From: Ascidiella aspersa
Lineage: Eukaryota
Length of the DNA stretch: 64,000 nucleotides
Assembly (NCBI GenBank): GCA_963924565.1
Contig: OZ004611.1
Span: 24,614,001 to 24,678,000 of the forward strand
Direction of reading: 5' to 3'
The notes beneath the pieces were generated by a model. The model saw only the letters and a program-made list of their open reading frames with translations, made no database searches and was not told where the DNA came from. The position numbers were made by a program, and so were the translations under genes. This document shows positions 9,210 through 56,000 of this stretch, one piece after another. Each line of letters begins with the position of its first letter. Within the stretch, counting starts at the first letter, position 1.

Positions 9210-9935
9210 GCAGGGTCTGTAGAGCCGTAGTTGGACTCGAGACTATTTTGGACTGCGGAGTAGAGAAAGACTCTTATAGTGCGCTAGCGCGGTAAGTTTG
9301 GAAACGATAAGATCGCAACTGCAAATTGGAATGGTTGAATAACATGTGGTGAAAGATCATTCAACACCATATTGTGGTGCTTTTCAGTTAAAGACATTGA
9401 TGTACGTCCACCTTATTGATGTACGTCCACCTTATTGATGTACGTCCAGCTTATGTTTAGGTAGATGTGTTGCATATAGGACTATAGAGTCGGTTTCGGA
9501 TTCGGGACTCATCTGAATCGGTAAATTTGGTTACTTCGATTCTATTTTTCGGCCGAAGTGGGATTCAAGTGTGTTCAACCCCGAAAGCCCGGCTTTAAAT
9601 CACAAAGATATTCAGCAATCCACTCATAGGTGTCACATAACTGTTCCACCCATAGTACACGGTGGGGAAATATTACACCATTTGCTATTACACTTTTACA
9701 ATTTATAGTTGGTTGCCTTACCAGTTTCGAAATTGGTAATGCGTACGTCGGACTCGACACCAGTTTTTTGTAGTCTTACTCGAGTCCCGAGTCCCGCGAT
9801 TAAAGCAAAACAAACCGAATCCATCGGGTCCCGATTCCGACTCAGCAACCCTGCTTTAAAGCATAGCGTTGAGGAATCGGGTTAAATGTTTTGTCCGGAG
9901 TCCGACTGTTATTTTAAACCGACTCCACAGTCCTT
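9210..9935. mobile_element. Cluster of CGGAGTCGG/GGACTCG-type MITEs at the unit junction (also ~18771-19496, ~36409-37055, ~49156-50052)
   Basis: Repeated ggactcg/cgagtcc motifs, gcaggg...ccctgc ends, and ctttaaa target-like flanks. Confidence 0.6.
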
Positions 9936-16969: not shown

Positions 16970-19513
16970 AATTGACCCTAAACCGACTCTGTAAAACATA
17001 GTCAACTCACATAAAACAACATTCATTTGTCCTCGATTTATCTCTAAACCTGATGTTCTACGAATGTCGCATAGGTTCTACGAATGTCGCATCTGTCTTA
17101 AAATTGTTCGAAAGATAATTAGGCGGCCTCTTATGTTTCAAGCTTATGTTGCCTTTTCGACTGGTAGATATAATAGACTGCATAAACGTCGTTTTTTATG
17201 GACCGTTCTTGTTACATCTAAGCTGCTTTCAATACGTTCACAAAAGCGTGTTTTTACTCATACAAGTTTCTTCCACCAAAACGACAACCAGACGTTTTCG
17301 TGAAGGATTAAAACAATGCTGGTCCAACCAGGGATGACGTCAAAGTTACAAGCTGCGACTGTTTCCCAATATACAACTCATTTTTTATAAGAAGAGTTCA
17401 ATTACGGTATACTATAGACCAGTGATCGGCAACCGCCGGTCTGCAAGGAGTTCGTTACCGGTCCGTAGCAGGGTTGCCCGATTAAAATTTTGATTTAAAC
17501 CCAACTCATCGGTTGTATTCATAGTGTTGCTTTCTTTGCGAGAAATTACTCAAATATTCTGGATGCCCGATTTGCTAAAACTATCGAAAGTTAAATATTC
17601 GGCACATTTATTTTTCAATAAATTGTTTGCTTGGCATGAAGTTATATTTAGATCGATTTTTTTTAACTTGATGCTCGATGTCGCCTGTCTTTTTATTTTT
17701 CATCGAATTGCCTGCATTATCTTTGCTTTGTAAAGAAGTTTCAAATTGAATATTTTGCTACTAATACTTTTTTCATATAGCACTCTTTATAGTAATCTAT
17801 CATCATGTCTGTTTACTCGTTTTCGAATCACATTTCCTGAGAACAAAACTTGTGCACTTTCGTCTATTTATGCTATAACCCGACCTAATTTTATTTTCAC
17901 GTTTAAGCACAAATACATTTTTGGTTTAGCTCTATATTATGATCAAACTTTATAGTTTCATGTAATTGAATCATTTAACATCCATTATAAGCGTTATTTG
18001 CTCACTGCATGTACTGAAATGAAAATGTTAGGACTGAAATGTTAAGTTCTCTCTTAAACTAAAAAGAGCCCTTCAAACAAACTCTCTTAGTGCACCATTA
18101 ACAATGCGGAAATAAATGAATGACATCATTCCAATATAAACCAGGTGTAAACGCAATTAATCGGCACCAATGCATAAACAGAGCATATGTCCACTTCCTC
18201 CAAACTGCACAAAGCCAGGAAATCATTAATTACGGGCTACAGTGGCAAAAATACAATCTGACGGTTCATTCGCAATTACGTATGAATTGTTAAACTGAAA
18301 ACAAAAGATATACAACAATACGATTCTTAATACATAAAGATTAAGCGTTTACACTGGTCATTATTTTATAGGAAAATATCACGGCGTTTTGATACTAATT
18401 GAATTGAATTCGGTTGATTTTACAGTTTTACTAATCGCAAACAAAGTGCCACGAACATAATGGATCAAGGTTTAGTTAGACGAAGCAGTGTTGAAAATCA
18501 ATAAAAATATATCCAAAATGTTTAAAATGGTAACTATTGTGTTTGAGCTTTGATATTCCTATACTAGGATGTCAAATGGTTAGAACGCTTTTTACTAAAA
18601 GACAAGAACACATTAATTTTTTGGAACTTAAAAAGTACACACTTGCATAATACATTTTCAGGATATAACTTAACACAGCGGACGACTTAGAAAAAACGAA
18701 TGTTACGTGAATTAGGCCGTTGGCGACTCGACTATTAGCCTATATTGCAGCATCTACAGTACAAATTAAAGCAGGGTCTGTAGAGCCGTAGTCGGACTCG
18801 AGACTATTTTGGACTGCGGAGTAGAGAAAGACTCTTATAGTGCGCTAGCGCGGTAAGTTTGGAAACGATAAGATCGCAACTGCAAATTGGAATGGTTGAA
18901 TAACATGTGGTGAAAGATCATTCAACACCATATTGTGGTGCTTTTCAGTTAAAGACATTGATGTACGTCCACCTTATTGATGTACGTCCACCTTATTGAT
19001 GTACGTCCAGCTTATGTTTAGGTAGATGTGTTGCATATAGGACTATAGAGTCGGTTTCGGATTCGGGACTCATCTGAATCGGTAAATTTGGTTACTTCGA
19101 TTCTATTTTTCGGCCGAAGTGGGATTCAAGTGTGTTCAACCCCGAAAGCCCGGCTTTAAATCACAAAGATATTCAGTAATCCACTCATAGGTGTCACATA
19201 ACTGTTCCACCCATAGTACACGGTGGGGAAATATTACACCATTTGCTATTACACTTTTACAATTTATAGTTGGTTGCCTTACCAGTTTCGAAATTGGTAA
19301 TGCGTACGTCGGACTCGACACCAGTTTTTTGTAGTCTTACTCGAGTCCCGAGTCCCGCGATTAAAGCAAAACAAACCGAATCCATCGGGTCCCGATTCCG
19401 ACTCAGCAACCCTGCTTTAAAGCATAGCGTTGAGGAATCGGGTTAAATGTTTTGTCCGGAGTCCGACTGTTATTTTAAACCGACTCCACAGTCCTTCTGC
19501 AAAGTATCAGTTT

Positions 19514-26694: not shown

Positions 26695-27230
26695 AATTGA
26701 CCCTAAACCGACTCTGTAAAACATAGTCAACTCACATAAAACAACATTCATTTGTCCTCCATTTATCTCTAAACCTGATGTTCTACGAATGTCGCATGTG
26801 TCTTAAAATTGTTCGAAAGATAATTAGGCGGCCTCTTATGTTTCAAGCTTGTGTTGCCTTTTCGACTGGTAGATATAATAGACTGCATCAACGTCGTTTT
26901 TTATGGACCGTTCTTGTTACATCTAAGCTGCTTTCAATACGTTCACAAAAGCGTGTTTTTACTCATACAAGTTTCTTCCACCAAAACGACAACCAGACGT
27001 TTTCGTGAAGGATTAAAACAATGCTGGTCCAACCAGGGATGACGTCAAAGTTACAAGCTGCGACTGTTTCCCAATATACAACTCATTTTTTATAAGAAGA
27101 GTTCAATTACGGTATACTATAGACCAGTGATCGGCAACCGCCGGTCCGCAAGGAGTTCGTTACCGGTCCGTAGCAGGGTTGCCCGATTAAAATTTTGATT
27201 TAAACCCAACTCATCGGTTGTATTCATAGT

Positions 27231-27764
27231 TGTTGCGGTCTTGCAACATCTTTAGCCGTTAGTAATTACTTAAGGAATACTAAATTAACACATTCAGTAC
27301 CCAATGGGTTTTAAACATTCGTGCATTTCATAGGCGCCGGTTACCACGATATTACCTCGCGAATCTGTGTATGACTATAGCATGTGAGGTCACGCGAGGA
27401 TTGTGAAATTTAAGCAAAATGGTTTGATTATGTTTCGTTATTGTTTCAGTAGTGATAAGTTTTTGTTCGAGAATGTTATAGATTGTTAGTGTTTTGTCTT
27501 TTTGTATTGATGCGGTTTTGAAGATATATTCTATGATAGGTAAAGTGTTATGTAAAATTATTTGATTAGTTGTTGATTGTTCAGTTGCTAATGTATGTAA
27601 ATTATCGTTATTTGCAAGCTCGTTGTTGTGTGAATAATTAATAATGCTAATTACCTTTTTTGGTATTTTTGAGAATCAGGCAGATATTCTTACTAAGGCA
27701 GAACATTAGCGCTGAGATACAAATTATCAGAGCTCACGCTAAATTGTTGTTACAAGTCGTAAAA
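27231..27764 (+). repeat. 5' LTR
   Basis: tgttgcggtcttgcaaca...gtcgtaaaa; about 3 substitutions versus the 3' LTR by eye. Confidence 0.96.
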
Positions 27765-27765
27765 T

Positions 27766-27783
27766 TGGTCCTCGAGTGACTTG
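27766..27783 (+). promoter_or_regulatory. Primer binding site
   Basis: TGGTCCTCGAGTGACTTG begins 1 nt after the LTR; TGG complements tRNA CCA. The priming tRNA is uncertain (resembles Tyr or Trp 3' ends). Confidence 0.75.
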
Positions 27784-27858
27784 ACGTTTTTGTTCTGCTA
27801 AGGTAATATTTGTACTAATACATTATAATATATATATTTTTGTTTAAATTTGATAATT

Positions 27859-29621
27859 ATGCAGTCAGCAAAGAAAGTTTTAACGCACCTAACGGATAAA
27901 ATTTTGGACGTCGAGCCAACCTGTGACAATGACGATATTGTAGGCACATCGCCCAATGAGAACGATTTAACTACGCTAGCACAGGAGCGGTTGGCAGCTA
28001 TTGACCGTTTGAATGCAGAAATATTAGAACTTCGGCTGTCTAATACTCAACACCTCAATGCTTTAGATCTCTCTCGACATAACACACGTCAGTTGAAAGA
28101 ACAACTTCGCATAGATCATCAGGCACACTCGTTAGCGATAAAGCAAAAGGAGACTGACGTGAAACAACTAGAGAAAATGATAAAAAGGATGATCGCGTTA
28201 GATCAGTGGCGTTGTCAGCTTTAGCAAAACGGCCAGCAACCGCTGCTATCCTACAGGAAATTCAAACAACCGTTTCTGAAGCAGCACCCCCGTATACGTC
28301 CCAAATTTATCCCGAACTGCCTACCAGCAGTGCGAATACCGCTCACACAATATTAATCACCGAAAATAATCCGCCTGATAGTGCAACAACCCCTTCTACA
28401 AGCAGAGCTCATTTTGATACAACTTTGCCTTCCTCGTCTGCATACACACCCATTTATTCTCGTGAAATCCCTGAGCCGCGAGGTTTGTTTTCTAGCAGTG
28501 ACGAGCCTCAGACGTTAACCCTTGACAACTCGGTTAGAAAAAAGGTTGATTTAGCACAATTAGTACGCTGTGTACCGGGACAGGAAAAGATTTGGTTTGA
28601 ATTAAATACTAGCAATCTGCAGAAACATGGTTTGACGACACAAAACATTTTAACGACCCTACTTGCAACGACTGATTTACACGCAGACCTAAGGAATTAT
28701 TTACAAGCTTTAATCGTAAATGCAAATATGAATGCTGATCAGAAACTAAGAATCTTGGGAGTATACATAAAAGAAACATACACTAAAACTAAATTGGCCA
28801 CAATGCAGGGGCTTAGAAAACAACTTGAGAGCATTAAATTAGATAATACCTTCATTTCTCCTTTGCAGGCCATCAGCACTATTTTTGCACAGCAAGGTTT
28901 GGTATTGGATGGACGGGCGACCGATGATCCTCATATACTATTATTTCAGGAAATTTTGTTACAAAAATTACCAACCACTATTGCTTTACAGATCGAAGGA
29001 AAATCTTGGTTTGAAACTCGGAAGATATTAAGTCGCTTGCATAATATCTCACAGGCAAAAACAACGGACAAGCCTACGGATCTAGTAATGTATAGCCATC
29101 CGACTGACAATATGCCTGTTTCTAATCCAACAAAACCTTTTGACTTAGATTCTATAACTAGTGATATGAGTGAATTGCGTGCTTTAATACTACAAAAATC
29201 GGAAAACGAGCAACCACTAAATAATAAAATATGTCTTCCATCTTCACAGGAGCAGCAAGAGATCCATAAGTATTCGGTCTTTCACATTTGCTCGGAACAT
29301 GGCCATTTAGCACCTGACTGTGACATAACAAGGATTATGCACAAAAAGGGCTGGAAGGTAACACGTGACCCATCGGCAAATCTTGCTTCGATTGACCCTT
29401 CCATTCCAAAATGTCTTCGAGGACGAAACTTCAGAATGCCCTGGACTCAATTTCGTGGAAATGACAGGTGCAATTATCCGCAACAGGACCGCAATGATAG
29501 AGGTAGGAACGATTTTTACCATTCCACCCGACATGCAACGCCACCACAGGCTTTCCGTGCCAATTCTAATCGCTTTCAAAAAAACAAATTTCGGGTGCTG
29601 CCAAGTCCTTGCCAGCTTTAA
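27859..29621 (+). CDS. gag: Gag (coiled-coil N-terminus; one frameshift near 28178; degenerate CCHC knuckle)
   Basis: ORFs 27850-28224 and 28206-29621 join if one A is restored in gagaaaatgat. The knuckle F-HI-C-SEHG-H-LAPD-C has its first Cys replaced by Phe. The position is between the PBS and the protease. Confidence 0.8.
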
Positions 29622-32600
29622 GCCCCCAGGCAGTGTTTTTACCTAATGACTATCCTATTTTAGCATCTGTTAACAGTACTAATCTGCATTTATTTGTAAC
29701 TGATGAGGTCACTTGCCAACCATTTTTATTGGACACGGGTGCATCTTCCAATATCGTACATTCTTCTGCATTAGGTTCTACGAGTGAAGTACTACAATCT
29801 AATTCGACATTTAACACATTAAATGGGTCGATTGCTCCAATTGCTTCCCAAGGAAAAGTAAATCTATCAATAAATATTTCAGGCCAATCACGCAGTTTGC
29901 AGTTTGAAGTTTTAGATTGCACGCCATGCAACATAATAGGGTTGCCTGATATAATGAAATATGATCTATTGCCGGAAAGCAGTCTGGCAATACATGGCAC
30001 GCACCAGGAAGCGGCCCACGTATTAACAATTTTGCGCTCAGCTGACAAAGGACTTTCTAATAACAACATTTCGTATGATCAGGCCTGCAGAATTGCTAAC
30101 TCTCAACAGCCTCGAACTAAAGTTGAAACGCCTGCGAAGACTTTGATTTCACCAAATAAAATTGATCCAATAATTGATTGATCCAATAAATCGTCATCCG
30201 GTTTTCTTAGTAAAAAAAAAGCCAAGTGGATTTCGAGTGGTGGTTGATTTTAAAAAGTTAAACTCTTTGATGACGACAGACGATTACAATTTGCCGAGAA
30301 TGGATTCTGTGTCGAAGTACATCCAAGGTAAAAAGTTTTTTTCTTCAATTGATTTATGTAAGGCTTTTCACCACGTTCCGGTGAGTCCAGAGTCTCGTAA
30401 TTACCTTGGCCTTGCCACTGAGTTCGGGACGATGGCCTGGTCACGATCTCCGATGGGCATTAGAAATGCGGCCGGAGTTTATCAAGCAAATATGGACGTT
30501 ATAGCTAAAGAAATATTAACTAACTATAATGAATGGCGCACCAATCAGGGCATGCAACCCGTCGCGGAAGTTGTAAAAACCTATATAGATGACATATTAA
30601 TTTCGACGGCAACCGAAGAAGAACATTTAATTTTAATCGATTTAACCTTTAAGATGTTATCCCATTACAATTTGACTGTAAACAAGGACAAATGCAATTT
30701 TGGAAAAGATCGCGTAACCTTTTTGGGCCACATCGTTTCTGCTGAAGGTGAACAGCCGCTGCTTTCACGACTACAGGGTTTAAATGACCAACCTTTGCCG
30801 CGCACGATAAACGATTTACGCAAATGGCTTGGTGTGGTGCGATATGAAAAACGTCACGTTCCTCACTTAGCAGAATTAACAGTTTCACTAGATCAAATCG
30901 GCAAGAATGTCAGCGCGAAGGAATCATCTAAAACAATGATTCAGTGGACACGCGAACTTTTAGAAGCGTTCCTCTTGACACGTGAAGCCATGTTAAATTC
31001 AGCGACCCTGCGTTCTTATGACCCAAGCCGCCTTTTGCAAATTGCAACTGATGCATCTGGCCTTGCAGCAGGAGCAGTTCTTTTTCAATTGTCCGCAACA
31101 AACAAAATTGAACCGCTGGGGTATTTCAGTCGCGCTTTTAACTCTGCTCAACAGCGCTATTCGACATTCGTACGCGAACTGCTTGCCTTACGTTTAGGTT
31201 TGCAATATTTTCGAACGTACCTTGAGTCCAACACTTTCATAATCCATACCGATCACGCCCCCTTAATGAAGGCTCTACAAGGAGGCAACACGCCTCTTAA
31301 AGGATTGTCAGCGGGACTGGTTAGGTCAAATCCTTGAATTCAGTTTTGAAATAAAGCATGTAAAAGGGTGTGACAACATAATTGCTGATTATTTCAGTCG
31401 TGAGGGCTGCAACACGTCTAACGCATCTCAGAAGACATTTTTATACTTTGCAAAAACCCAGTTTCCCCCCTCTCTGTCTATAAACCGCTTGCATAATCTA
31501 CAACTAGAAGCATTCTGTCAATGCAAAAGCAACCAATGTGCTAAACGCCACGTCAAACCGTCTCAAATAACTGATCTACCTAAAGGGCCGTTGATAATGT
31601 GCGACGAGCCAGGTTTACTTGACCGTGTTTTGTTACCTACAGAACCTTCACAGCGTTTTGTGTTTGATTCGTATCATGGCTATACCCATCACGGCCCGAG
31701 CATAACTTGGAATGCTTTGCGACAGATTTATCATGGTCCCCATTTTCGCAAAAACATATTGCGTTGGTCTAACGATTGTCAGGTTTGCATAAAAAACCGT
31801 CCGAAACGCTTAGAAGAGGTACCGTTAAAACCATTTCAATATCCAAGTGGAAGATTGCGCACTGTTCATATGGACGTTTTTGCATTACCTCCATCAACTA
31901 CCAACCCTTCCTATACCAAACTTCTCACAATGATCGACCGCGACAGTTCTTATGTAGTTCTTGCGCCCCCTTTACATGAAACCGCCAGTCAAATCATCGA
32001 TGCATTTCGCAAATTCTGGCTCGCCTATTTTTCCGCGCCTGAAGTTCTAGTGTCTGACAATGGCCCCAACTTCCGGTCAAATGAATTTCGTTCTTTCTGC
32101 TCTGATAGCAATATCGAACATCGTTTGTGTACACCTTACAACCCCCGCGCAAATGGAAAAATTGAACGCATGCATCGCTCTCTACGTGATCTAATTTCTG
32201 CTCAGCCGTATAAAGAAGCGTGGTTACAATATCTAGCGTGGTTACAACTTTCCATAAATTCTATGTGGCGCGAACAAATGAACACTTCATCTTTTCAGTC
32301 CCTTTTTGGAATAACGCCACGCACTCCTGTTCATGTGACTGCACCGCTTTTGTCCAGTTTTCCTCCTGAGCACACTGGAAGTGCTCCGGGTCTGATACAT
32401 AGTCGACTGCCTCAGAAATCTGTAAGTGACGCTGCCCCATCTCGTTGGGAAGACGCCACTCATGCCTTTTTGCCTGTTCGTTCGCGCGGAAATAAAATAG
32501 CACCTGTAAGGGAAGGTCCTTTCCGCATTGTACGTTTGACGCGCACCAATGTAACTGTCGATTTGTCGCAAAATGAATTGCGCACGATTCCGCGTGATCA

Positions 32601-32682
32601 GGCATATCACTCCACACGAGTATGCAAAGGAATGCACTTGCACCCGTGTGGAACGACAAGTAACTCTTTGCATAGGAACTAA
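29582..32682 (+). CDS. pol: Pol: protease, RT, RNase H, integrase (frameshifted)
   Basis: Protease LLDTGA; RT FRVVVDFKKLN, IDLCKAFH, SPMG and YIDD; RNase H TDASG/RELLA/TDH; integrase HHCC, D-D-E (HMDV, SDNG, IERMHR) and GPF. Frame breaks at ~30170 (16-bp duplication) and ~31300 (extra base). Confidence 0.95.
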
Positions 32683-34480
32683 TGAAATACGCGTACCATC
32701 ATTACGTAACACCTGGGTAAAATTTCGATATTCATTGCCAGCTGACAAACTACCATCTCTCTACGTTAATTCGTTCACCTTATTATCTTTGTTTTTAACA
32801 ACTTTACTCGAAAAGTTTGTACGGATAAAAGCGGTAGTAACGGTTGGGTCTGCCTCTTACCTAACTAGAAATACGTCGATTGACGATTTCGTTTACTCTG
32901 TAATTCCTAATATTTGTGACACTCATCTCACAACCCGATTACAGGTTTTAAATGACGCAGAACCTTGCAGCACAGCAGGTTGTGTTGGTGCCCTTCGCCT
33001 TTCAATCCCTGTTGGCACGATAGGTCATTATAGGACAAATGTACGCGTACATGACGACGATAATAATGTGCCCGGATGTTCAGAGCCTTATCTCAGTTTT
33101 TGGTCGACCACCCAACAGATTGGCACCATTCACCGAAAACCAAAAACTGCCCCTCGCATCTTTGTAAACATATCGCTATTTGAACCTCGTTTTTCTCACT
33201 TTTCGTCTAATGAATTAATTGTTACTATACAACAACGGGGTAATTTAAACGCTCGTCTCCTTGATTTATTTTTGTTAGCTTATCCACAAGAATGGTTTCC
33301 CAATAACACCATAATAACGAACCGTAAAGCTTCCTTTCCTGTTCGTTAGCTACGGACCGCGCATGTCTAAAAAAAAGTCGCGCCCCTTCATGTCGTTTAG
33401 CAACTGGTTCTCCAAGGGTCGCCATAGCACATAAAATAACCCTTGCCCCTTTTTGGCAATGCAAGTAATATTCCAGTAGCTCCCGTACGTTTTAGACCGA
33501 CTCACTTTCGTACAAAGCGTTTTCTTTTTATGTCTTTGATTGCTTGTTTGTTTTCCGAGGCAACGATTCACTATGAAATGCACAAATTTAAAACAGAACT
33601 GAATTCTAGGCTAAATACCCTCCAAAAACAAATAGACCAAAAATTCACGGCTACTGAACTCCAGATCCAAAGCATGGCTTCTTCCTTACAACAAACAAGT
33701 TTTGCAGTTGAAGATTTACACGACGGGACAGAAGCACTCGCCCGCGACTTGCGAAACTTTGAACAAATGCAACTTTCCGAAGACCGTCAATTACTCCGCC
33801 TAATACAACAAAACCGTCTCCTTGGGCTACAAAACCAACGTGAGCAACTTGAGGCGTCTCAAATTTCTCTCGCCACTTCCACCGCTGAACGTGATTTGCT
33901 CCGTGCCTGCCTTCGTTCACTACACACCCTTGGAAACCTCACCCGGGATAACACTTCGGTTTATTCCTTCACCTTATCAAAAGGCATTCTAAGACTTTCT
34001 CGCCTTGCAAAAATTGAGTCTATGGAAGCCTCCAACACTTCCGATACGAACTTCACCGGAATAAGCGCGATCCTTCACCGACAAGACACAAACATCTCTA
34101 AGACACTTGAAGAAGACATCGCACGTCTCGACAACACAAGTATGAATCTAACGTTCACCTTTCGTCCTTTGGTTTTCACTGAGGATAGCCACCTATTCAA
34201 CTTCTCGCATGACGATTTTTTTGCCGATGCTGGTGCAGGACTCAACTCAATCGAAGGCGTCCTTGACACAGGACTAAACGACGTAAGGGACGTCGTTGAC
34301 AACACAGTAGATGACGCCACCGGACTTTTAGGCCAACCCCTTTTAATGGTTGCAATCATCGGAAGTTCGGCGCTAGCAGCATTTTTACTTCTCATCGGCG
34401 GATGCTACGCATGGAATCGTTTTCGTCACAGTCAAGACAATGGCAAACACCGACAAGGAATTGCGTTATCAACTCTCTAA
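32573..34480 (+). CDS. env: Env-like class I fusion glycoprotein (SU part frameshifted, TM part open)
   Basis: RTKR at 33509-33520 is followed by hydrophobic FLFMSLIACLF, a long heptad region, several N-x-S/T sequons and a C-terminal TM (LLMVAIIGSSALAAFLLLIGGCYAW). The Cys-containing upstream ORF is 32573-33349. Confidence 0.8.
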
Positions 34481-34492
34481 AAAGGGGGGAAG
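34479..34492 (+). promoter_or_regulatory. Polypurine tract
   Basis: aaaaaggggggaag lies just before the 3' LTR and overlaps the env stop codon. Confidence 0.9.
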
Positions 34493-34494
34493 CA

Positions 34495-35028
34495 TGTTGC
34501 GGTCTTGCAACATCTTTAGCCGTTAGTAATTACTTAAGGAATACTAAATTAACACATTCAGTACCCAATGGGTTTTAAACATTCGTGCATTTCATAGGCG
34601 CCGGTTACCACGATATTACCTCGCGAATCTGTGTATGACTATAGCATGTGAGGTCACGCGAGGATTGTGAAATTTAAGCAAAATGGTTTGATTATGTTTC
34701 GTTATTGTTTCAGTAGTGATAAGTTTTTGTTCGAGAATGTTATAGATTGTTAGCGTTTTGTCTTTTTGTATTGATGCGGTTTTGAAGATATATTTTATGA
34801 TAGGTAAAGTGTTATGTAAAATTATTTGATTAGTTGTTGATTGTTCAGTTGCTAATGTATGTAAATTATCGTTATTTGCAAGCTCGTTGTTGTGTGAATA
34901 ATTAATAATGCTAATTACCTTTTTTGGTATTTTTGAGAATCAGGCAGATATTCTTACTAAGGCAGAACATTAGCGCTAAGATACAAATTATCAGAGCTCA
35001 CGCTAAATTGTTGTTACAAGTCGTAAAA
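34495..35028 (+). repeat. 3' LTR
   Basis: Direct repeat of 27231-27764, preceded by a polypurine tract. Confidence 0.96.
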
Positions 35029-37072
35029 ATAGTGTTGCTTTCTTTGCCAGAAATTACTCAAATATTCTGGATGCCCGATTTGCTAAAACTATCGAAAGTT
35101 AAATATTCGGCACATTTCTTTTTCAACAAATTGTTTGCTTGGCATGAAGTTATATTTAGATCGATTTTTTTAACTTGACGCTCGATGTCGCCTGTCTTTT
35201 TATTTTTCATCGAATGGCCTGCATTATCTTTGCTTTGTAAAGAAGTTTCAAATTGAATATTTTGCTACTAATACTTTTTTCATATAGCACTCTTTATAGT
35301 AATCTATCATCATGTCTGTTTACTCGTTTTCGAATCACATTTCCTGAGAACAAAACTTGTGCACTTTCGTCTATTTATGCTATAACCGACCTAATTTTAT
35401 TTTCACGTTTAAGCACAAATACATTTTTGGTTTAGCTCTATATTATGATCAAACTTTATAGTTTCATGTAATTGAATCATTTAACATCCATTATAAGCGT
35501 TATTTGCTCACTGCATTTGTTGAAATGAAAATGTTAGGACTGAAATGTTAAGTTCTCTCTTAAACTAAAAAGAGCCCTTGAAACAAACTCTTAGTGCACC
35601 ATTAACAATGCGAGAATAAATGAATGACATCGTTGCAATATAAACCAGGTGTAAACGCAATTAAACGGCACCAATGGATAAATAGAGTATATGTCCATTT
35701 TCTCCACACTGCACAAAGCCAGGAAATCATTAATTGCGGGCTACAGTGGCATAAATGGAAAACGATTCAACCGCAATTGCGTATGAATTTTTAAACTGAA
35801 AACAAAAGATATACAACAATACGTTTCTTAATACATAAAGGTTAAACGTATACACTGGTCATTATTTTAGAGAAAAATGTCACGGCTTTTTGACACTAAT
35901 TGAATTGAATTCGGTTGATTTTACAGTTTTACTAATCGCAAACAAAGTGCCACGAACATAAAGGCTGAAGGTTTAGTTAAACGAAGCAGTGTTGAAAATC
36001 AATAAAAATATATCCAAAATGTTTAAAATGGTAACTATTGTGTTTGGGTTTGATATTCCTATACTAGGATGCCAAATGGTTAGAATGCTTTTTACTAAAA
36101 GACAAGAACACATAAAATTAAAAAATCCGCGTTTGACGTACAACTTAAAAATCTGCGTTTGGAACTACATGAACCGAAAAGCATTACTACAGCTGAAACG
36201 CCCACATAAATAACGTTAACCCACAGTTGTTCCCATTTAGAGTAAAACCATAATTTTTTGGAACTTAAAAAATACACACTTGCATAATACATTTTCAGGA
36301 TACAACTTAACACAGCGGACGACTGAGAAAAAAACGAATGTTACGTAAATTAGGCCGTTGGCGACTCGACTATTAGCCTATATTGCAGCATCTACAGTAC
36401 AAATTAAAGCAGGGTCTGTAGAGCCGTAGTCGGACTCGAGACTATTTTGGACTACGGAGTAGAGAAAGACTCTTATAGACTCTTATAGTGCGCTTGTGCA
36501 GTAAGTTTGGAATCGATAAGATCGCAACTGCAAATTGGAATGGTTGAATAACAGATGGTGAAAGATCATTCAACACCAAATTGTGGTGCTTTTGAGTTAA
36601 AGACAACCCTATAAGCGGATTACTGTATGTTTGCTTTATTTTTAGGGGGATAAGTAGCACATAGGATGATAGAGTCGGTTTCGGATTTGGGACTCGGCGG
36701 AATCGTTAAATTTGGCTCGAGTTGGACTCAGGACTCAGGAATGGGACTCATTTTTATGTTTTCGGTCAGCGTCGGACTCGGGTTGTACAAAACCGACTCC
36801 GCAACCGGCTTTAAAGCAGGGTTCGGAGTCGGACTCGAGACTCGACATATTTGGTTTGTTTAGCTAGAGTCGGACTCGAAACTCGGGACTCGAGTAAGAC
36901 ATTACCAAAATTTCAAACTAACAAGGCAGCCAACTGTAAATTGTAAAGGTGTACGAAAATCGCACATTTTGCCGGAGTCGAACTCGGGACTTGGAATCGG
37001 GTTAATTGTTTTGTCCGGAGTCCGACTGTTATTTTAAACCGACTCCACAGTCCTGCTGCAAAGTATCAGTTT

Positions 37073-40000
37073 CTAAGCCAGTCCTCCTTTCCGACACCTT
37101 TCGGTGCACATCACCAGCGCGGCGCTGAGCAGCGAACAGAAACCGATTATATAATACAGGCGTGAAGTCGGCAGAACGATGCGGTCGTTTCGTGGGAGGT
37201 AATCGAACCCATAATCGCTTTCCTCGAGCTCTATCAAGTAGCCGAAGTTGTTTAGAAACAGTTCGACCCGATTCGAATCGTTGGCCGGCACAAGAGCGGC
37301 GTCCGTGATTTGTGCGGCGAAATTCTCGGAACCGGGCCAGAAACCGCGGTGGATGATTTTACCGTTGCCCGTCGCGCGATCCATCAGGTCGTAGACTATG
37401 TGCCAAGCCTGAAAAAAAGCCTTCTTGTTGGAGCCGATGTGCCACACGAACGGGCCCATGTAGTGCAGCGTGCTCGGGTACACGTTGTCGTCGTACACCA
37501 ACTTTATGTTGGTCGTGTTCTTGCCCAGTTTCGTTCGCAGGATTCCGGTAATGAACACGTCCTCCAAATGCATGTCGTACCTGTCGATCAAACAGTCAAT
37601 CAAATTTTATTTGTTTAACTAGTTGTTTTCGTTTTTTTATTGTTTTTTTAAGAGCGACCCCCTAAACTAAAGTTTTAATCTATGAGAATTACATCTGATT
37701 TAACGTTCTGTCGATAACCAAACGCAAGCGTTAAAAAAATGGGTTTGAAGCAAAAATTTGCAATTATCTGATAGACCGCGCTGTTAATTCACACAAAAAT
37801 TAATACGGCAATTTCGCAAATCAATTGGTGGACCTTTTGTTATCGCTAACCTCCAAACTGTGACAAGCTTTATTTTATTATTATGTTCAGAAAATAAAAT
37901 GTACTGGCATCATGTTTTAAATAAATGAACAAAATACTCTTATGTTTTATATTACGATCGTGAAGCATCGATACGTTAGCTATAAGCCATCTAGTGTCAC
38001 CTTGGAGTGATTTGAGCTTGCCGGTAGATGTCGCTCAACATGGGGAACATCATCACGATAAAACCTCCGTGACAAAACGGAGCCAGATGCCCGAATGAGT
38101 AGGTTTCCTTCGAGAGAGAGTACTTCCCCTCTCTGTAAAGAAAGCTTTAAAGTTAAAAAGATTCTGAAAGACTAAAACAGGTGTATTGCAGTCACGGCTG
38201 AAGTGTAAACGTTGAAATTAGTAGGACAAATACAAATACACATATTTGTCTTCAAAATAATGGAATCAGGCGGTTATGTTTAAGAAAACATTTTTGAAAT
38301 TTAAATGTCTTGCTTACTTAAACCTCTACATTAAGATAAACTTTATAGTTGAAATTGTATTACATATTTATTGCCCCAATGATTTAAGACAGGGGGTTTC
38401 TAGCAGCTTATACACTGTCATTCGATTAAACACCAAAATTAAACACCTGAAATGGGCGAAAATGTAACATGTTTAAAAATAAACGTGTTTAAATTTCAGG
38501 TGTTTAGACGTTTTGCCGTTTATTCGGTCAGGTGTTTAGGGCTAGTATTCAGTGTTTCCAAATCAATTCCACAAAAATTTCATTAGGTAAACCAGTTTAT
38601 TGTGCGAAAAAGGTGAAAAACAACACAAAAAGCTCAACACAGTTAAAGTTGAAAAAAAGGGTTAAACTTGAAAAGGAAAACTATACATTAAAAATTGAAG
38701 TGCTCATATTAGAAATAAAAAGAGGTAGGAAAACAGAAAACATACAATGGAAGTGTTTATGCAAACAGAAATATGTATGCGACATAAAATAAAAAAGAGA
38801 AAAAGTAAATAAAAACAACAAAAGATATATATATATATTTTTTTTAATAAGGTTGGGTCTTTAGTAGGTTGTTTGAAACCAAATTAAGTAATAGTTCAAA
38901 TTTTTTTTGCAAACAAAATGTGATAAAAAAACAGAAAAAGTAAAAAAAAGCACAGAAAAAGGAGATATATTACAAAGTTAAAACCTTTATTATAAGATTT
39001 ATAATTGCTATGCTTGGCAAATTTTCACGGTGGGGCCTTAATTAAGTGGTTTAAAAACATATAAACACAGAGCAACAGGGTGGATAACTTAAATCCAGTG
39101 CATATTAACAGGCTCGAATATTAATGAAATATAACTTAACAATTCGTTCAATAAGTGTTGTTCTTCCACAAATTTAATGTCCATCCACTAATATACAAAT
39201 GCAGAAACGCTGCTGTGCCGTACAAAGGTTTGCCTGTTAAAGGCCTTAAAGAGTTCTTCTTTAAGACGAGTTGATCATGGCTGCCTAAAAAATAAAATGG
39301 AGATCAATATAATATACTGCAATAATTAAATTATACACTGTCACTGAACAACTTTTTATTCATTTGCTGTTATTCACCAAAACCACTACATGCCACGTCA
39401 TAAAACTATGTTTTAGTTTGTCACCTATCACTACACAAGCATATTATTATGATGTGTTCTAGGTTTGGTGGCAATGTACTATTTAAGCATAGCATTAGAA
39501 AATGTATTAATTAATAGTTATGTTACACTGTAACTTAATGACAGCGCAATGATTACAAAATAAGTTCATTTTTATTTGTATTGATATTTCCATGACCCTC
39601 TAAAATTAAAAAAAAGGTTTAACCCTACTTTGAAAACCAATTAAACCATTAAATAATTTCAGATAAAAAGTAAAAATGTGGGCCAGAATATTGTATTGGC
39701 CATTATGTTCTATTAAAATAGTTGCTTAAACTAGTGATACACAATCTGACCTAAAAAATTTGCCCATTACTGGGACATGCAGACCAAACATTATACACAA
39801 GTTGTGTAACACAACACACATAAATTAAATATCCATTTAACTATGTATTTACCACAAATTTTAAAGTTCGATAAAAGAACTTAAGAAGAAAATTTGAGTT
39901 TGTTTACCTTGTGTATCAATTTCAGTAGATCTGTACTCTTTTGTTGTTTTCCGCTTGAACTTTGTCACAGACTTTCATTTTACCATCTTACACTGGATTT

Positions 40001-43000
40001 AAATTCCTGTAAATAAATAAAAACTATAATTATGAAAACTATATCATTTTATTAAAGGGTGAGTAGCATACCAAAAGTACTACAGATTAAATTTTACATT
40101 TAAAGCTTGAATGTAATATTTAAACAATGGAAATCATAAATTAAAACTAAAAGACATATTAAAGTACTTCAGAAATTGTACAGAGATTAAAAAAAATAAT
40201 TTTCTGGCTGCTACTACCAAAATAAAAGCCAAAAGCGAATAAACTATATTAATGTAAAACATGTAAGTAAAATTTACTTACATTTTTAACCTAATCTCCT
40301 GTGAACCAAGTTTTTTTGAAGCCGAAAGAGCAAAAGTTTGCTGTCAATGATCAGCACCCTGAAACAAAGAAGTGTAATCTAAATACCTTTAATAATTATG
40401 AATTTAATAATACTTGATTGTTCAACAGAATAATTAAATTACTAGTTAGGAGTGGACAAGAAATAGCTTACAAACCTGTTTCATTTAATCTCTTCATGTC
40501 TACATGTGTAAGCACCAAACTATTATGAAATAGTCTTTTAAAACTTTCATTGCTTTTGGATTTATGAATGAAATACCTTTTCGTTTTCGCTTGGAAAACT
40601 TATTTTAACATACTTTTCACATCCTAGACCTGTCAGTCTTGCACAGCTAATGAAACATTATTACTACACTTCTATCAAAAAGCAAACCAAAATAAGTAAT
40701 ATTTATATACATCACCACTATACACTTTAGTATTTGTTTAACATCAATCTTAGCAACTCGAAAGCCAAAAATACGCAAAAGCTTTAACTGTAATGTATAA
40801 CTTGAACGGTTCAAACTTTTTTCGGCATTTTGAAATCCCGCGTTCGTCACAGCGTCACAGACTAGTGGATATGCTTTGTTAATGTTCATCGGACCGAATC
40901 AATTTCAAATAATTTTAATCATGAGTTGATCTATTGAATGTACTTTATATGTACAATATGAAAGAAACTTGTTTTAAAACAAAACAAAATATACTATAAA
41001 TAGTTAAAATATATCGTAAATCAAACATTTAATAAATAATACTTACTATTCGTCATACCTTCTTGAAAAATATATCAGCTTCATCGCGATACAGCTTTGC
41101 CCTAGAAAAAATCCTTTCCAAAGATTGTTTTCGTCACGCGTATTTTATTGCTCGCGCAATTTAAGTAGGTCATGGCGGGACAAGACCACACAGCTTCGCT
41201 TTTTTACTTTGGTGGTACAAAGTTATTCGCAAGCGACATCAATCAAATTAAATATTGGATTTAATGGCACGTCAAGAACACAAACCCGTATTTTTATGAT
41301 TGTCGTTATATTTATAAAATGTAATGATGCCAAATAGGCCGAACAGATGTCAAGTTAGGAAACCAAAAATTAGGTCATTTTGTTTATTGTGTTCTGTTAC
41401 GACAATACATGCTAACTTGTATGGTTAAATAAAAAATTGATAGACGAACTCGTACATAAAACAACTGATCAGTGCTTTAAAGTACCAATACCCCTCATCA
41501 ACATCTTCCAACATAAATGGCTTGAGCTATTACTTACCAAGAATGTATCGAATTAAACATGTCTAACAATTGGCGTGTTGAAATTTGAAGTGTTTAATCG
41601 TAAACATGTTTAAATACGTCAATTGTGCTTAAAATCACCCAATAATCGTTGTTAAACACGTCAAAATATCAGGTGTTTAACATAAAATCGTTCAGGTGTT
41701 TGTAATTTAAACACCAAAACTAAAATTAAACACGAAGGTGTTTAAATTAGGTGTTTAAGTGTTTAGATTTTAAACGTGCATAGACCGTTTTGGTGTTTAA
41801 ATTTAAACACCGTTCTGACAGTGTAGTTTTAGGAAATGCTCCACTGTAATAAGCGGTGGCGAAAAAATTAACTTCAACCCTAAACCCCGTGAACACAGTT
41901 TATTTTTTTTGTTGTTATCGTAATTTATTTGTTTATAATTCTTGTAAAATAGCGTTAGAGAAACGGAACTCTACCTTGCAGGTCCAATTTGTGCGCTGTA
42001 CATGAATGGACAGTGCATCGTTCCGTCTTTGACGAACTTCCGCTGATTGGTTGTGAAGTAATCGTACGTCAGCGCCATATTGATGACGCAATCGTCGTCC
42101 GTAAACGCGTAGTAATCGCTGACATCACCAGTGACGTAGGTGACCCATTGGTAGGCTGCCAACACTTTGTCGGGCAAGGTGGCGTAGTCATCATTGATGT
42201 CACATTGGAGAATGTCGCCGTATTCTTTGTTTTCCGCTTCTATTGAAGCCTGTAGTGTTTTGTTTTCTACTCTTCCCACAAGGAACAATGTGACAAACCT
42301 TTAAACAACATGAAAATCGTTAAGTTAATCGGAAGCCAATGCCCGATACCAAGGTGTACTATTAGTATTCATCCAATACTATGGGGCAGACTTGGGCAAC
42401 TAGATTTATTTTAGCTTTTTAAACTTAGATTAGAATTAAAATTAAAGCATTTACTGAAATTTCTAAAAAAATAATTTTCAACTAGAATTTGATTTAATGG
42501 TAATTTATTCTTATAAGAACGTGAATAATAAGTATTTGTGTGCAATTTTTTATGGTTTTTAGACAGTAAAAATTACATAAATGTCGTTCAAACCAAAGTG
42601 TTTAAATTTAAATTCTGTGTTTTAACTAAGAGACTAAAAATGCCGTTGGACAAAGTAGGATTTTTGGTGAAATCTGAATTAGATTAGAACTAGAATTTCA
42701 CAAATTAGATTAGAAATCGAATTAGCCGCATTTGCTCTAATTCAATGAATTTAAAAACTAGAATTATTTGGAAGTCTGTGGTATCTGATATAGGGTGGTA
42801 AGGACCGATGCGATATAAAATTTATCTAGGAATCTCAGCCGTGATTTGCTATTCAATGGGGGAAATCCGAAAGATAAGTTTATCAAAAAATGTTTGGGTA
42901 GAAACTGGAAGTAAATAAACTTATTAACGATAAATTTCGGTCTAATAACCTAAAACAATACTTAATTTAATTTGGTATCGAATCAGATCGCAATAATTTT

Positions 43001-47492: not shown

Positions 47493-49341
47493 AATTGACC
47501 CTAAACCGACTCTGTAAAACATAGTCAACTCACATAAAACAACATTCATTTGTCCTCGATTTATTTCTAAACCTGATGTTCTACGAATGTCGCATCTGTC
47601 TTAAAATTCTTCGAAAGATAATTAGGCGGCCTCTTATGTTTCAAGCTTATGTTGCCTTTTCGACTGGTAGATATGATAGACTGCATAAACGTCGTTTTTT
47701 ATGGACCGTTCTTGTTACATCTAAGCTGCTTTCAATACGTTCACAAAAGCGTGTTTTTACTCATACAAGTTTCTTCCACCAAAACGACAACCAGACGTTT
47801 TCGTGAAGGATTAAAACAATGCTGGTCCAACCAGGGATGACGTCAAAGTTACAAGCTGCGACTGTTTTCCAATATACAACTCATTTTTTATAAGAAGAGT
47901 TCAATTACGGTATACTATAGACCAGTGATCGGCAACCGCCGGTCTGCAAGGAGTTCGTTACCGGTCCGTAGCAGGGTTGCCCGATTGAAATTTTGATTTA
48001 AACCCAACTCATCGGTTGTATTCATAATGTTTCTTTCTTTGCGAGAAATTACTCAAATATTCTGGATGCCCGATTTGCTAAAACTATCGAAAGTTAAATA
48101 TTCGGCACATTTATTTTTCAACAAATTGTTTGCTTGGCATGAAGTTATATTTAGATCGATTTTTTTTAACTTGATGCTCGATGTCGCCTGTCTTTTTATT
48201 TTTCATCGAATTGCCTGCATTATCTTTGCTTTGTAAAGAAGTTTCAAATTGAATATTTTGCTACTAATACTTTTTTCATATAGCACTCTTTATAGTAATC
48301 TATCATCATGTCTGTTTACTCGTTTTCGAATCACATTTCCTGAGAACAAAACTTGTGCACTTTCGTCTATTTATGCTATAACCCGACCTAATTTTATTTT
48401 CACGTTTAAGCACAAATACATTTTTGGTTTAGCTCTATATTATGATCAAACTTTATAGTTTCATGTAATTGAATCATTTAACATCCATTATAAGCGTTAT
48501 TTGCTCATTGCATTTACTGAAATGAAAATGTTAGGACTGAAATGTTAAGTTCTCTCTTAAACTAAAAAGAGCCCTTCAAACAAACTCTCTTAGTGCACCA
48601 TTAACAATGCGGAAATAAATGAATGACATCGTTGCAATATAAGCCAGGTGTAAACGCAATTAATCGGCACCAATGCATAAACAGAGCATATGTCCATTTC
48701 CTCCAAACTGCACAAAGCCAGGAAATCATTAATTACGGGCAGTGGCATAAATAGATTAGGCGCAAATTAATAATTAAAGTTAGAATTCGCAGTGGACAAA
48801 ATGACAACAAAAATACGCTACATCGCAAACAAAGTGCCACGAACATAATGGATCAAGGTTTAGTTAGACGAAGCAGTGTTGAAAATCAATAAAAATATAT
48901 CAAAATGTTAAAAATGTTAACTATTGTGTTTGGGTTTGATATTCCTATACTAGGATGTCAAATGGTTAGAACGCTTTTTACTAAAAGACAAGAACACATT
49001 AATTTTTTGGAACTTAAAAAGTACACACTTGCATGATACACTTCAGGATATAACTTAACACAGCGGACGACTTAGAAAAAACGAATGTTACGTGAATTAG
49101 GCCGTTGGCGACTCGACTATTAGCCTATATTGCAGCATCTACAGTACAAATTAAAGCAGGGTCTGTAGAGCCGTAGTCGGACTCGAGACTATTTCGGACT
49201 GCGGAGTAGAGAAAGACTCTTATAGTGCGCTAGCGCGGTAAGTTTGGAAACGATAAGATCGCAACTGCAAATTGGAATGGTTGAATAACATATGGTGAAA
49301 GATCATTCAACACCAAATTGTGGTGCTTTTGAGTTAAAGAC

Positions 49342-49569
49342 ATTGATGTAAGTCCACCTTATTGATGTACGTCCACCTTATTGATGTACGTCCACCTTAT
49401 TGATGTACGTCCACCTTATTGATGTACGTCCACCTTATTGATGTACGTCCACCTTATTGATGTACGTCCACCTTATTGATGTACGTCCACCTTATTGATG
49501 TACGTCCACCTTATTGATGTACGTCCACCTTATTGATGTACGTCCACCTTATTGATGTACGTCCAGCTT
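49342..49569. repeat. 19-bp minisatellite ATTGATGTACGTCCACCTT x12 (x3 at 9396-9452 and 18957-19013)
   Basis: Counted directly from the sequence. Confidence 0.97.
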
Positions 49570-50069
49570 ATGTTTAGGTAGATGTGTTGCATATAGGACT
49601 ATAGAGTCGGTTTCGGATTCGGGACTCATCTGAATCGGTAAATTTGGTTACTTCGATTCTATTTTTCGGCCGAAGTGGGATTCAAGTGTGTTTAACCCCG
49701 AAAGCCCGGCTTTAAATCACAAAGATATTCAGCAATCCACTCATAGGTGTCACATAACTGTTCCACCCATAATACACGGTGGGGAAATATTACACCATTT
49801 GCTATTACACTTTTACAATTTACAGTTGGTTGCCTTACCAGTTTCGAAATTGGTAATGCGTACGTCGGACTCGACACCAGTTTTTTGTAGTCTTACTCGA
49901 GTCCCGAGTCCCGCGATTAAAGCAAAACAAACCGAATCCATCGGGTCCCGATTCCGACTCAGCAACCCTGCTTTAAAGCATAGCGTTAAGGAATCGGGTT
50001 AAATGTTTTGCCCGGAGTCCGACTGTTATTTTAAACCGACTCCACAGTCTTGCTGCAAAGTATCAGTTT

Positions 50070-53000: not shown

Positions 53001-56000
53001 CACCTGATATACCGTCAAAAATGGCAACCTGCATTTATTAAAATTTATGTCGTCAGATAAGCAAAAATCGAATCAAGGGCACAAACCCATGACATACCAA
53101 AGTTAATTTGAAGTATACTCTACAACAGAGGTTCCCAACGTGGGCGGTACCGCCCCCTTGTGGGCGTTGGCGAGTTACAAGGGGGCGTTTTGAGTCTTTT
53201 CATAATTTGGGGGGCGCTGAATGCACATAAGGGGGCGTTACATAACAGTACTTATATCAAAATTTTTATAAAAAGTTCACATAAAAATAGTAACAAACAG
53301 CACTGTTGGACATAGGTAACTTTTAACCTTGAATGGCAACTTCCGTACTGCGAACAGTAGTAGTTTCCCGACCATTGTTACGTAATAATTGGCTTTCTTA
53401 TGTAAAGCTATTGGTTGCTGTTGCGTTTTACCGTTTTATATGCGGCAAAATGTTTCTATATTTAAAACAGGGGTCGCCAACCTACGGCCCTCGACCCGCC
53501 GCCTCTTTGACAACGAGACACGAGTCCATTTTAAATACTTTTTGACTATTTTAACCTAGTACGGGTGAAAAATTTACGCGCTTCGCGCGAATTATGTTTC
53601 TGCTTCCAGTTTGTTTACGTTTTGATGCTGTCTTTGCACTAGATCTGCGCTTCTTTACCATAGGGACGTGGAAGGCTGCCAAGTGTGTCGCGGACAAACG
53701 GAAAACGTTTTCAAAAATAGACATATATTTTTTAATATTTTTTATTTTTTGGCCAATGTAATAAAAACTATAGCAGGAAATTTAAAAGAAATGCCGTTAT
53801 ACCCCCCAAAAAATAATGTATGTATAAATTCCAATAGTGAATGTATGTTAGACAGCCTTAACTATGACTGACAGCTTATCGATACGAAAGTGAAGACCAT
53901 ATGATGTCAGACTACGATTATTATAATACTTTACTGTAACGCAAGATTAGGGGGCGATATGAAATAATATTGAGCCCAAGGGGGCACTAGTGCAAAAAAG
54001 GTTGCGAAACACTGCTCTACAACAATGACTGCTGAGGGTATTCAGGGCAGTGTTCCCCAATCTTGTAGCACATTTAAGAATCTCTATATAGGCACACTAT
54101 ACTGTGCCGCGGCACACAGTTTGGGAATCACTGATTAGGAGCATAGATTAATTTGGATACAGGCTCTGGACATTTGCATACTTCAGATGTGTTCATACTA
54201 TGGGGCGAAACCAGGCGTTTGATTCAGGGATGAGCGTTTACAATTTCCTAAAATTTGCATGATTTTAGTGGAATTACACCTAATTACGTCGTGTTTACAA
54301 AACACACAAAAACAAAATTCAGGTTGCGGTATCCGCGTTTGGCAGGGCGGTCTACAAATGCGTTAGTTTAGCAATCACGATGCCAGGATGTACAATGCAT
54401 GTGGTTACCCCAAAGCGCCCAATCGTTCTTGGCCGATGCAGCTTTCTAACCAGCACGGTGTTAATTAGCACAGATGTTAAAATCTTCATTTAGCTCACAC
54501 CTCTTACCTTCTGTTGTTAATTTTTGCTACAGCGCCCCACGACTGTCTAACGTTGTTTCTTCGCTCTCTCGAATGCACAGCCGTTTTCACGATGATCAGC
54601 ATGAATATTTTCCCTTTACTGAAGTCGAAAGCATTCGGTCTGCACATGAGAGAACAACAATAATAATCTGTTAGACACAGACACGGTGATAAATCCGCAA
54701 AACATAAACTTGCATTATACATGCGCAAATTTAGTAAGCGCACTTTTCGTAGCTTTGAAAATCCATTTTACTGGTCACCCCAACCTTTAGTAAATAATTT
54801 TTATTTAAAGAAATCGACAACTTAAAAGCACCGCAAGTCCATGTGCTTCGACAGTAAATTAGGTACATTATATTAAATTACCTATTATATTCATATAAAT
54901 TACAAGGCCACGGACAGCTGATCCTTCGTCTCGTAAAACTTTAGCATGAAGAGAAACTAGGCCTACTTGTGAGGATTCAGTCGATAAACGCTCTAGTCCA
55001 GTAGTTCTTGATTTTTATGTAGTTTGTTTCTGTGCAGCCTTACTCCTGTGGAGTCAATATCTTCGCAACTTGTTTGTCCAAATGAGCTCGACAAAAACCA
55101 ACACAGCGAGCTCGAGCAATTTTTTGTGTGCCCATTACGTCTGGTCTCCTATATAAAAGGTTACCCTAATCAAACCAAATAAAGGCAATTTTTTGTCGCG
55201 CGATTAAGAGTTAATATTTTGTATTTTTCTGTTATCTTAGTGATATGTAATCGCAAAATACGGAATTGCTTTTAGTATGATATTTATTTTATATGTACGG
55301 GGACGCAAGGAACATGACAATTACCAAAGGGGGCACGGTAGAAAAAAGAACCACTTCTGACCCTAATTTCTAAAGAACTAATTTGCGTTCATTTGAGGAC
55401 TTGCATAATATAAAAATGGGCGACTTCCGAGGTACATGCTTCAAGCTAACGATAGGTTAATATGTGCATATTACCTTCAGGTTAATTAATTCGGAACTTA
55501 AAATCTTGTTTAATTGTTGTCGCCCCTTAATGAGGATGCAGCTGACAGCGATATTGCCCGATAGTGTCGCGCCTTCCTATTTAAAGACGGCGGTAAAACG
55601 ACACTCTATGGTTAAGTCAGTGTTCCTCAACCCTTTTTAGCGGCCACCCTAATACTAAGCGTAAGTACAACAGTAGTCCAATTATCTTCACTGAACTTTT
55701 TATAAGCGAACAAGAAAAGAAAATAACATTTTTAAGTTTAAATTTAGTTAACATAATCCATGTCTTTCTATTGCTTTCGTAGTTTTCCTAAATTTAGAAA
55801 AATTAAACGAAGTCCTGCTCAGAACCAATTTCAATAATTCTAATCAGGTGAACTACTGCAGTCGGCGACCAAACAAATACAACGGCGACCCAATTTGGGG
55901 TCGCGACCCATAGATTAAAAACACTGGAGGTGCGAATTGAACTATTCCACAGGCTAAACGCGCTAAATGTATATTAACCTGCCCAACTTACGAAGTCACC

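Follow-up and report, generated by a model that had tools for sequence, protein, structure and literature searches.

A Ty3/Gypsy lineage of the tunicate Ascidiella aspersa encodes a predicted class I envelope with a likely relationship to the influenza haemagglutinin stem

We analyzed a stretch of 64,000 nucleotides from Ascidiella aspersa (assembly GCA_963924565.1, contig OZ004611.1, positions 24,614,001 to 24,678,000 of the forward strand; hereafter the window), in which an initial annotation had placed a recently inserted Gypsy element with a class I fusion envelope at 27231..35028. The element was found to be a broken, deleted Ty3/Gypsy copy, and the envelope (env) of the family to which it belongs is likely, as judged from sequence, a class I protein with a kinship to the influenza haemagglutinin (HA) stem. 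The inserted copy in the window is dead and unremarkable in itself; what is notable is the envelope family to which it led. The resemblance to HA, an accessory open reading frame (ORF3) and a sister family with open frames came from the present analysis and go beyond the initial annotation.

A profile of 24 family rows was compared to 177,635 PDB sequences, and all nine hits with E<0.05 were haemagglutinins (best E 0.0074). The match was a single colinear stretch that starts at a C-x-T-P-x-G motif close to the HA1 end, crosses the cleavage site and fusion peptide and reaches the first helices of HA2; two family members have this motif almost unchanged. By HHalign, the matched block spanned 150-175 columns at 16% identity, covering the last ~45 residues of HA1 to the first HA2 helices. 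The family scored 8-33% with five influenza A HAs (46% in one further run) and 68-88% with a seven-HA profile that included one more influenza A sequence and one 28-31%-identical HA, at p-values (3.5e-6 to 4.7e-5) that are pairwise and not database-wide. By contrast, the family scored 2-5% against paramyxovirus fusion protein F (33 sequences) and 1-2% against coronavirus spike S (27 sequences). All comparators were natural proteins, with the seven HAs confirmed by Pfam. In calibration runs the F-S pair, a known relationship, scored 89%, while HA-F and HA-S scored 0.2% and 0.3%.

A match of only ~150 columns at such low identity would also fit a separate class I fusogen that shares with HA the common plan and no further descent, its score arising from composition at the cleavage site, fusion peptide and amphipathic helix. 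We consider this unlikely, although the best-scoring PDB HAs do carry a polybasic site resembling a furin motif, other regions of env have no HA match, and the long ectodomain is without the HA disulfide. When the cleavage site and fusion peptide were masked, the match survived (51%, p 1.5e-4) with its register unchanged, and two separate blocks each fell at the expected place in HA (pre-cleavage block, p 0.009; first helix, p 1e-4). Other furin-cleaved class I proteins did not score, and the HA score rose once the divergent HA was added. The match was kept in all four leave-one-group-out tests (21-84%); none of 160 block shuffles reached the observed score of 55.8 (maximum 35.1), and the reversed profile gave 0.2%. 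Family env resembles an HA-like fusogen both in its central cleavage, predicted to expose an N-terminal hydrophobic peptide in 9 of 9 proteins, and in the colinear similarity of its pre-cleavage stem block and helix A region. Taken together, these comparisons suggest that env is related to HA by descent, and we regard such descent as fairly probable.

Several results weigh against a relationship to HA. The match is limited to residues 407 to ~565 of 768, and no HA match was obtained with any of three other blocks used alone (the N-terminal block of the surface subunit, the long helix in its second half, and the linker after it). A host-only alignment did not match HA (0.5%), a five-protein subset scored 25% and yielded one HA2 hit in the PDB at E 2.7, the divergent HA alone scored 2% against the family, and the HA profile comprises seven sequences. 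The Pfam Hemagglutinin family was absent from the 25 (of 32) families listed for the 24 members, and it was likewise not listed when 10 proteins were scanned at E<=10. The post-cleavage ectodomain (275-306 residues) is longer than that of HA2, which is ~185 residues. The subunits of HA are joined by a conserved disulfide, and a conserved cysteine for such a bond was absent from the family (of the eight ectodomains, three have one cysteine and five have no cysteine). Coronavirus spike was placed above HA in a language-model atlas, with 22 of 30 hits. AlphaFold2 returned no confident fold, with a mean predicted local distance difference test score (pLDDT) of 34.7 from a single sequence and 43.8 from nine sequences; Foldseek found no match at E<=0.001 in viral and PDB libraries, and a wide structure search retrieved generic coiled coils only, with no fusogen named. 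The long heptad region described in the initial annotation is predicted to be helical, but its hydrophobic periodicity was not above chance, as it was reached by 663 of 2000 shuffles in a Fourier test. Language-model features ranked the spike and HA clusters first, a result that is weak by the tool's own scale, and a scan of the host genome with Pfam Hemagglutinin, run without a positive control, returned 0 candidates.

The class I character of env is on firmer ground. All nine family proteins have a basic cleavage site with a hydrophobic peptide immediately after it, and a transmembrane segment (TM) was found in 8 of 9, the other being truncated. The membrane subunit is 318-370 residues long, and its ectodomain carries 0-1 cysteines in all eight complete proteins. 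Two segments, residues 81-120 and 401-560, are the most conserved, and conservation is low in the stretch that separates them. In the better model, residues 64-108 and 396-443 folded at pLDDT 50-82, and helices are predicted at 462-588 and 595-660. In vertebrate retroviral envelopes the TM subunit carries a cysteine loop of the CX6CC type, which is absent from the family ectodomains. Based on this layout of cleavage site, hydrophobic peptide, helical ectodomain and TM, env is very probably a class I fusogen, in agreement with the initial annotation. A membrane glycoprotein with a non-fusion role, such as a captured host adhesion or coiled-coil protein, would account for the generic coiled coils of the structure searches, and the fusion role is itself predicted from sequence; however, the cleavage site and adjoining peptide are kept in proteins of ~20% identity to one another, env is positioned before the polypurine tract and is under purifying selection, and HMMER found no cellular homologue among 1.84 billion representatives. 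We therefore judge a non-fusion role highly improbable.

That env did not look like an errantivirus or Oikopleura Tor envelope, as the annotation had remarked, held by layout for the F-type and for Tor3b/4b, and profile scores against paramyxovirus F were low. The F-type layout, as described in PMC13524379, has a cysteine-rich head between fusion peptide and stalk, whereas the corresponding region here is nearly free of cysteine; likewise, the seven conserved cysteines upstream of the TM in Tor3b/4b are missing from family env. A highly diverged known invertebrate type (F-type errantivirus, Tor3a, or a foamy- or spike-like class I protein) that escaped the tools used is nonetheless conceivable, though improbable. 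The host is a tunicate, in agreement with a cellulose-synthase-like exon with TED and QxxRW motifs in its genome (tunicates being the animals that have this enzyme), and Tor elements live in this group; Tor3a env is described in PMC4402516 as unlike Tor3b/4b; the F comparison was confined to paramyxovirus F; and spike ranks first by language-model features. Opposed to this are the low F and S profile scores, the lack of Fusion_gly, Baculo_F, Gypsy or Foamy among the Pfam families listed for env (in three scans, two of them those used for Hemagglutinin), and the typing of O. dioica elements as ENV_F in the eLife catalogue. Env likely represents a third, HA-like envelope type in Ty3/Gypsy elements.

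By HMMER search of the same 1.84 billion representatives, eight env homologues were identified (E 2e-159 to 6e-4), none of them named. Word-index protein searches gave no hit for env, but one of them also missed family members present in its own collection, so these blanks are given no weight. For one type (P0007), 28 metagenome loci were fetched, and pol was found upstream of env in 13 of the 28, that is, in all loci with at least 5.9 kb of upstream sequence. These distant homologues are 18-25% identical and are encoded behind a pol whose reverse transcriptase (RT) forms the sister group. P0007-type elements have the order gag, pol, ~250 residues, ~440 residues with a BIR domain (both of two tested matched at E 2e-13 or lower), ~210 residues, env, ~500 residues and ~235 residues; no pair of long terminal repeats (LTRs) was seen in their partial metagenome contigs. 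Complex Gypsy elements of ~15 kb with up to eight ORFs, including the BIR (inhibitor of apoptosis) ORF, were observed at L034-L053 (e.g., L047:7886-9223 and L052:7956-9239); in them env is followed by two ORFs that lack annotation, of which one contains a hydrophobic segment. Scans of viral contigs with P0003, P0007, P0005 and P0004 returned no loci, while three stretches in the P0003 scan encoded a relative.

In an RT tree (FastTree; 127 RT-RNase H regions, two of an initial 129 having aligned over too short a span to be kept; 340 alignment columns; rooted at the midpoint), the window element, the sister family and seven multi-ORF RTs formed one clade with support of 0.999. The references in this tree are nearly all unnamed, and the nearest database RTs are about 35% identical. 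Because P0007-type env lies behind a pol whose RT groups here, env is old in the lineage and not a fresh capture; the independent capture suggested at first was not supported as a recent event private to this host. By these sequence relationships env and pol have travelled together for a long time. An insertion of ~20 residues just before the RT YxDD motif (about 30510-30575 in the window; also L023 and L035-L053) was apparently common to all env-bearing members; it was noted from an aligned span longer than in the other RTs of the tree and is a possible lineage marker.

Siblings with open frames (the initial annotation had proposed a search for intact ones) were found in the host genome (309 Mb) as a sister family with RT 69% and env 39-50% identical to the window element. 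Three of these elements were fetched, and in each the LTRs (~805 nt) were 99.9-100% identical within the pair. They encode a gag of 599 codons with a zf-CCHC knuckle, a pol that is in a single frame in one of the three, an ORF3 of 208 residues and an env of 768 residues. Eight loci were 46-50% identical, and env was open over 769-792 codons in five of them. The ratio of nonsynonymous to synonymous substitution (dN/dS; simple Nei-Gojobori count) was 0.05-0.15 in all six pairs compared, four from the host and two from metagenomes (the latter about 0.09-0.10). Env of the sister family is thus under purifying selection. Expression of this family is low: ~6% of one RNA run yielded 174 reads, most of which lay in sense orientation across pol and env. 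ORF3 (e.g., L023:7316-7939; also L021 and L025) lies directly before env and has a signal-like start, 17 cysteines and a TM, features that suggest it may be a type I membrane protein with a role in attachment. Its match to thrombospondin-1 was weak (E 0.024, below cut-off) and appeared only when the segment was scanned alone. ORF3 remnants also precede env in five diverged copies of the window's own subfamily.

A working scheme was assembled from the position, conservation, selection and sequence features above, with the fusion steps taken from established class I biology. Env would be translated as a glycosylated type I precursor and cut by furin into a surface subunit of ~430-550 residues and a membrane subunit of ~320-370 residues. 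The surface subunit would be organized like HA1: its conserved first and last segments would make up a stem, and the variable part that separates them would be a receptor-binding insert. A trigger would then drive the new N-terminal peptide into a target membrane, and a trimer of hairpins would form as the two long helices fold back. Virus-like particles could then pass from cell to cell, probably from soma to germ line. On balance we lean toward an invertebrate Ty3/Gypsy lineage that carries a true homologue of the HA fusion module, which would be a third envelope class of Metaviridae, the first retroelement relative of HA, and common to the 15-kb elements with an inhibitor of apoptosis gene; the HA stem and these envelopes would then trace back to a single ancient fusogen that orthomyxo-like viruses and retroelements exchanged in marine invertebrates. 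If so, the family would add this class to Metaviridae and provide a sampled relative for the origin of the influenza fusion machine and for the insertion of a variable head into a conserved stem. Gypsy elements can, moreover, be complex retroviruses with several accessory genes.

The features of the window copy are listed in Table 1. Its limits, as first annotated, proved exact by the LTRs and the ATAGT duplication at both ends, and its recent insertion was borne out by only 3 mismatches between LTRs of 534 nt and by empty sites in four other units of the array that it interrupts. Ty3/Gypsy identity was confirmed by the Pfam domain order protease (PR)-RT-RNase H (RH)-integrase (IN), with both Integrase_H2C2 and rve, although the protease match was below cut-off; the gene order between the LTRs is gag-PR-RT-RH-IN-env. 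The primer-binding site (PBS), polypurine tract (PPT) and 5-nt duplication, within the 4-6 nt of Metaviridae, agree with this assignment, with the right end lying 10 nt past the CA. A Kuafuortervirus/Troyka identity was considered and rejected, since the RT has YIDD, the termini are TG and the duplication is 5 nt; PMC11673190 and PMC12440569, in their available parts, concern another lineage.

Table 1. Features of the element and its insertion site (positions in the window).
Feature	Position	Strand	Remarks
Left target-site duplication (ATAGT)	27226..27230	.	four empty sites at 7948, 17504, 48007, 59403
5' LTR	27231..27764	+	canonical TG...CA end at 27754, then 10 nt repeated at 3' end
Primer-binding site	27766..27780	+	sequence begins TGG; tRNA not identified
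gag	27859..29621	+	two frames, break near 28185; 37-41% identity to sister gag
Protease piece of pol	29570..30181	+	~70 codons absent before RT relative to sister pol
RT + RNase H piece of pol	30174..31337	+	RVT_1 E 3e-26
RNase H end + integrase	31270..32616	+	rve E 2e-15, Integrase_H2C2; frame differs from that of RT
Deletion junction	32603..32616	+	integrase end adjoins env residue ~96, with loss of the intergenic region, of ORF3 and of the env signal peptide
env surface-subunit piece 1	32609..33346	+	66% identity to P0002 96-339
env surface-subunit piece 2	33343..33453	+	other frame; P0002 374-410; start of block matching end of HA1
env piece 3	33452..34480	+	73% identity to P0002 410-752
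RTKR	33509-33520	+	within env piece 3
Hydrophobic peptide	from 33521	+	within env piece 3, directly after RTKR
Predicted long helices + acidic membrane-proximal region	within env piece 3	+	from prediction and sequence
TM	about 34340-34414	+	in env piece 3, then 21-aa tail
Polypurine tract	34479..34492	+	
3' LTR	34495..35028	+	
Right target-site duplication	35029..35033	.	

Every gene of this copy is broken, with gag in two frames, pol in three frames and env in three pieces. The pieces of env lie in two frames, and five stops within 33347-33437 interrupt the main one. The pieces are 59-73% identical to the nearest relative (P0002), relative to which ~35 internal codons are absent. A deletion removed the accessory gene and the first ~95 env codons, signal peptide included. 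The env features described initially (a cysteine-containing piece, the furin-type site, hydrophobic peptide, sequons, acidic region, TM, short tail and PPT) were all present, but in a fragmented and N-terminally truncated gene. The copy is thus incapable of making the element's proteins, and its candidacy as a functional endogenous retrovirus was not upheld. Contigs of two public short-read runs spanned 27735-29975, 29977-32561 and 32579-33226 with 0 gaps. Because these cover most of the interior gap-free, the breaks in gag and pol are considered real, and assembly error was rejected as their source where the contigs span them; the stretch 33340-33450 was not bridged by any listed long piece. 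A relation of the two runs to the assembly is possible, and they do not count as independent evidence that the element is present. One RNA run had zero reads over 27468-33147, and no RNA data set was listed as containing the window stretch, runs with small shares having been left out of use.

A second copy, 36.9 kb upstream (C5:24604345-24612127), shares its site and its broken frames with the window copy and is 99.65% identical, while the flanks of the two are only 96.7-98.2% identical. The two represent either one insertion later copied inside the array or two haplotypes laid in tandem; the difference in identity between element and flanks could arise by gene conversion, unequal exchange or a haplotype in tandem. 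Since many lesions coexist with an LTR divergence of 0.6%, the template was apparently already defective when mobilized. Most likely, the copy would have been mobilized in trans from this template, followed by one duplication within the tandem array. Older copies of the window subfamily (L004, L006 and L007) keep ORF3 remnants and have lost a different part of env; these are several independent deletion derivatives.

The LTR family had at least 42 matches at 78-100% (40 of 110 candidates scored). A long spacer before the PBS was apparently integrated untrimmed (27755-27764 and 35019-35028), as in an independent insertion on contig C3, and most other family LTR matches end near position 521, unlike the 10-nt overrun here. 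The units of the array (window 1-64000) are ~9.6 kb long and 95-98% identical, and a galactosyltransferase-like gene lies on their minus strand (one of three ORFs tested matched Galactosyl_T at E 5e-15). Other insertions were observed in several units (about 38413-41823 and 53096-54337), as was a 19-nt minisatellite of variable length at the unit boundary (9339-9509, 18900-19070 and 49285-49626).

Comparison to known systems places the family beside, yet apart from, the described env-bearing elements. The catalogue of Chary and Hayashi (PMC13524379), the most recent survey, holds 1291 F-type and 221 HSV/gB-type invertebrate elements (1512 total) with no other label; elements whose pol and env lie 1.8-4.4 kb apart could escape its baits and gap limits. 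The errantiviruses of that study share with the family the gag-pol-env order, LTRs, PBS, PPT, furin site, fusion peptide, tunicate hosts and env co-diverging with pol. Unlike them, the family has a central cleavage site, an ectodomain almost free of cysteine, profile matches to HA and not F, and accessory ORFs between pol and env. An HSV/gB-type env is argued against by the hydrophobic peptide after the cleavage site and the helical ectodomain, a comparison made by layout, as the models were poor. Oikopleura Tor elements (PMC4402516) are similarly Gypsy-like and tunicate-borne, with a furin-cleaved membrane glycoprotein and, in Tor4b, space between pol and env; however, the tagged fragments of Tor3b/4b env are 60-65 kDa, in contrast to the 318-370 residues and 0-1 cysteines of the family. 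LTR elements of bdelloid rotifers (PMC5408684) are also Gypsy elements that have captured third ORFs, small TM proteins among them, but their canonical env is paramyxovirus F-like, and thrombospondin has 0 occurrences in the available text. No HA-like retroelement env was found in the available parts of PMC5408684, PMC12583693 and PMC11521997, nor was one reported in the literature searched, which did not cover subscription journals and Repbase Reports; within this scope, the HA-like type has no counterpart among published retroelement envelopes of invertebrates. Compared to influenza A/B HA (PF00509), family env is ~200-350 residues longer, has no detectable head match, has an amphipathic membrane-proximal region and is retroelement-borne; it also lacks a short stretch after the fusion peptide (a 21-column gap) and the conserved inter-subunit cysteine. 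Precedent exists for exchange of ectodomains between retroelements and negative-strand viruses (PMC11521997), and the family shares with HA the two-subunit class I layout, the central cleavage and the colinear profile match.

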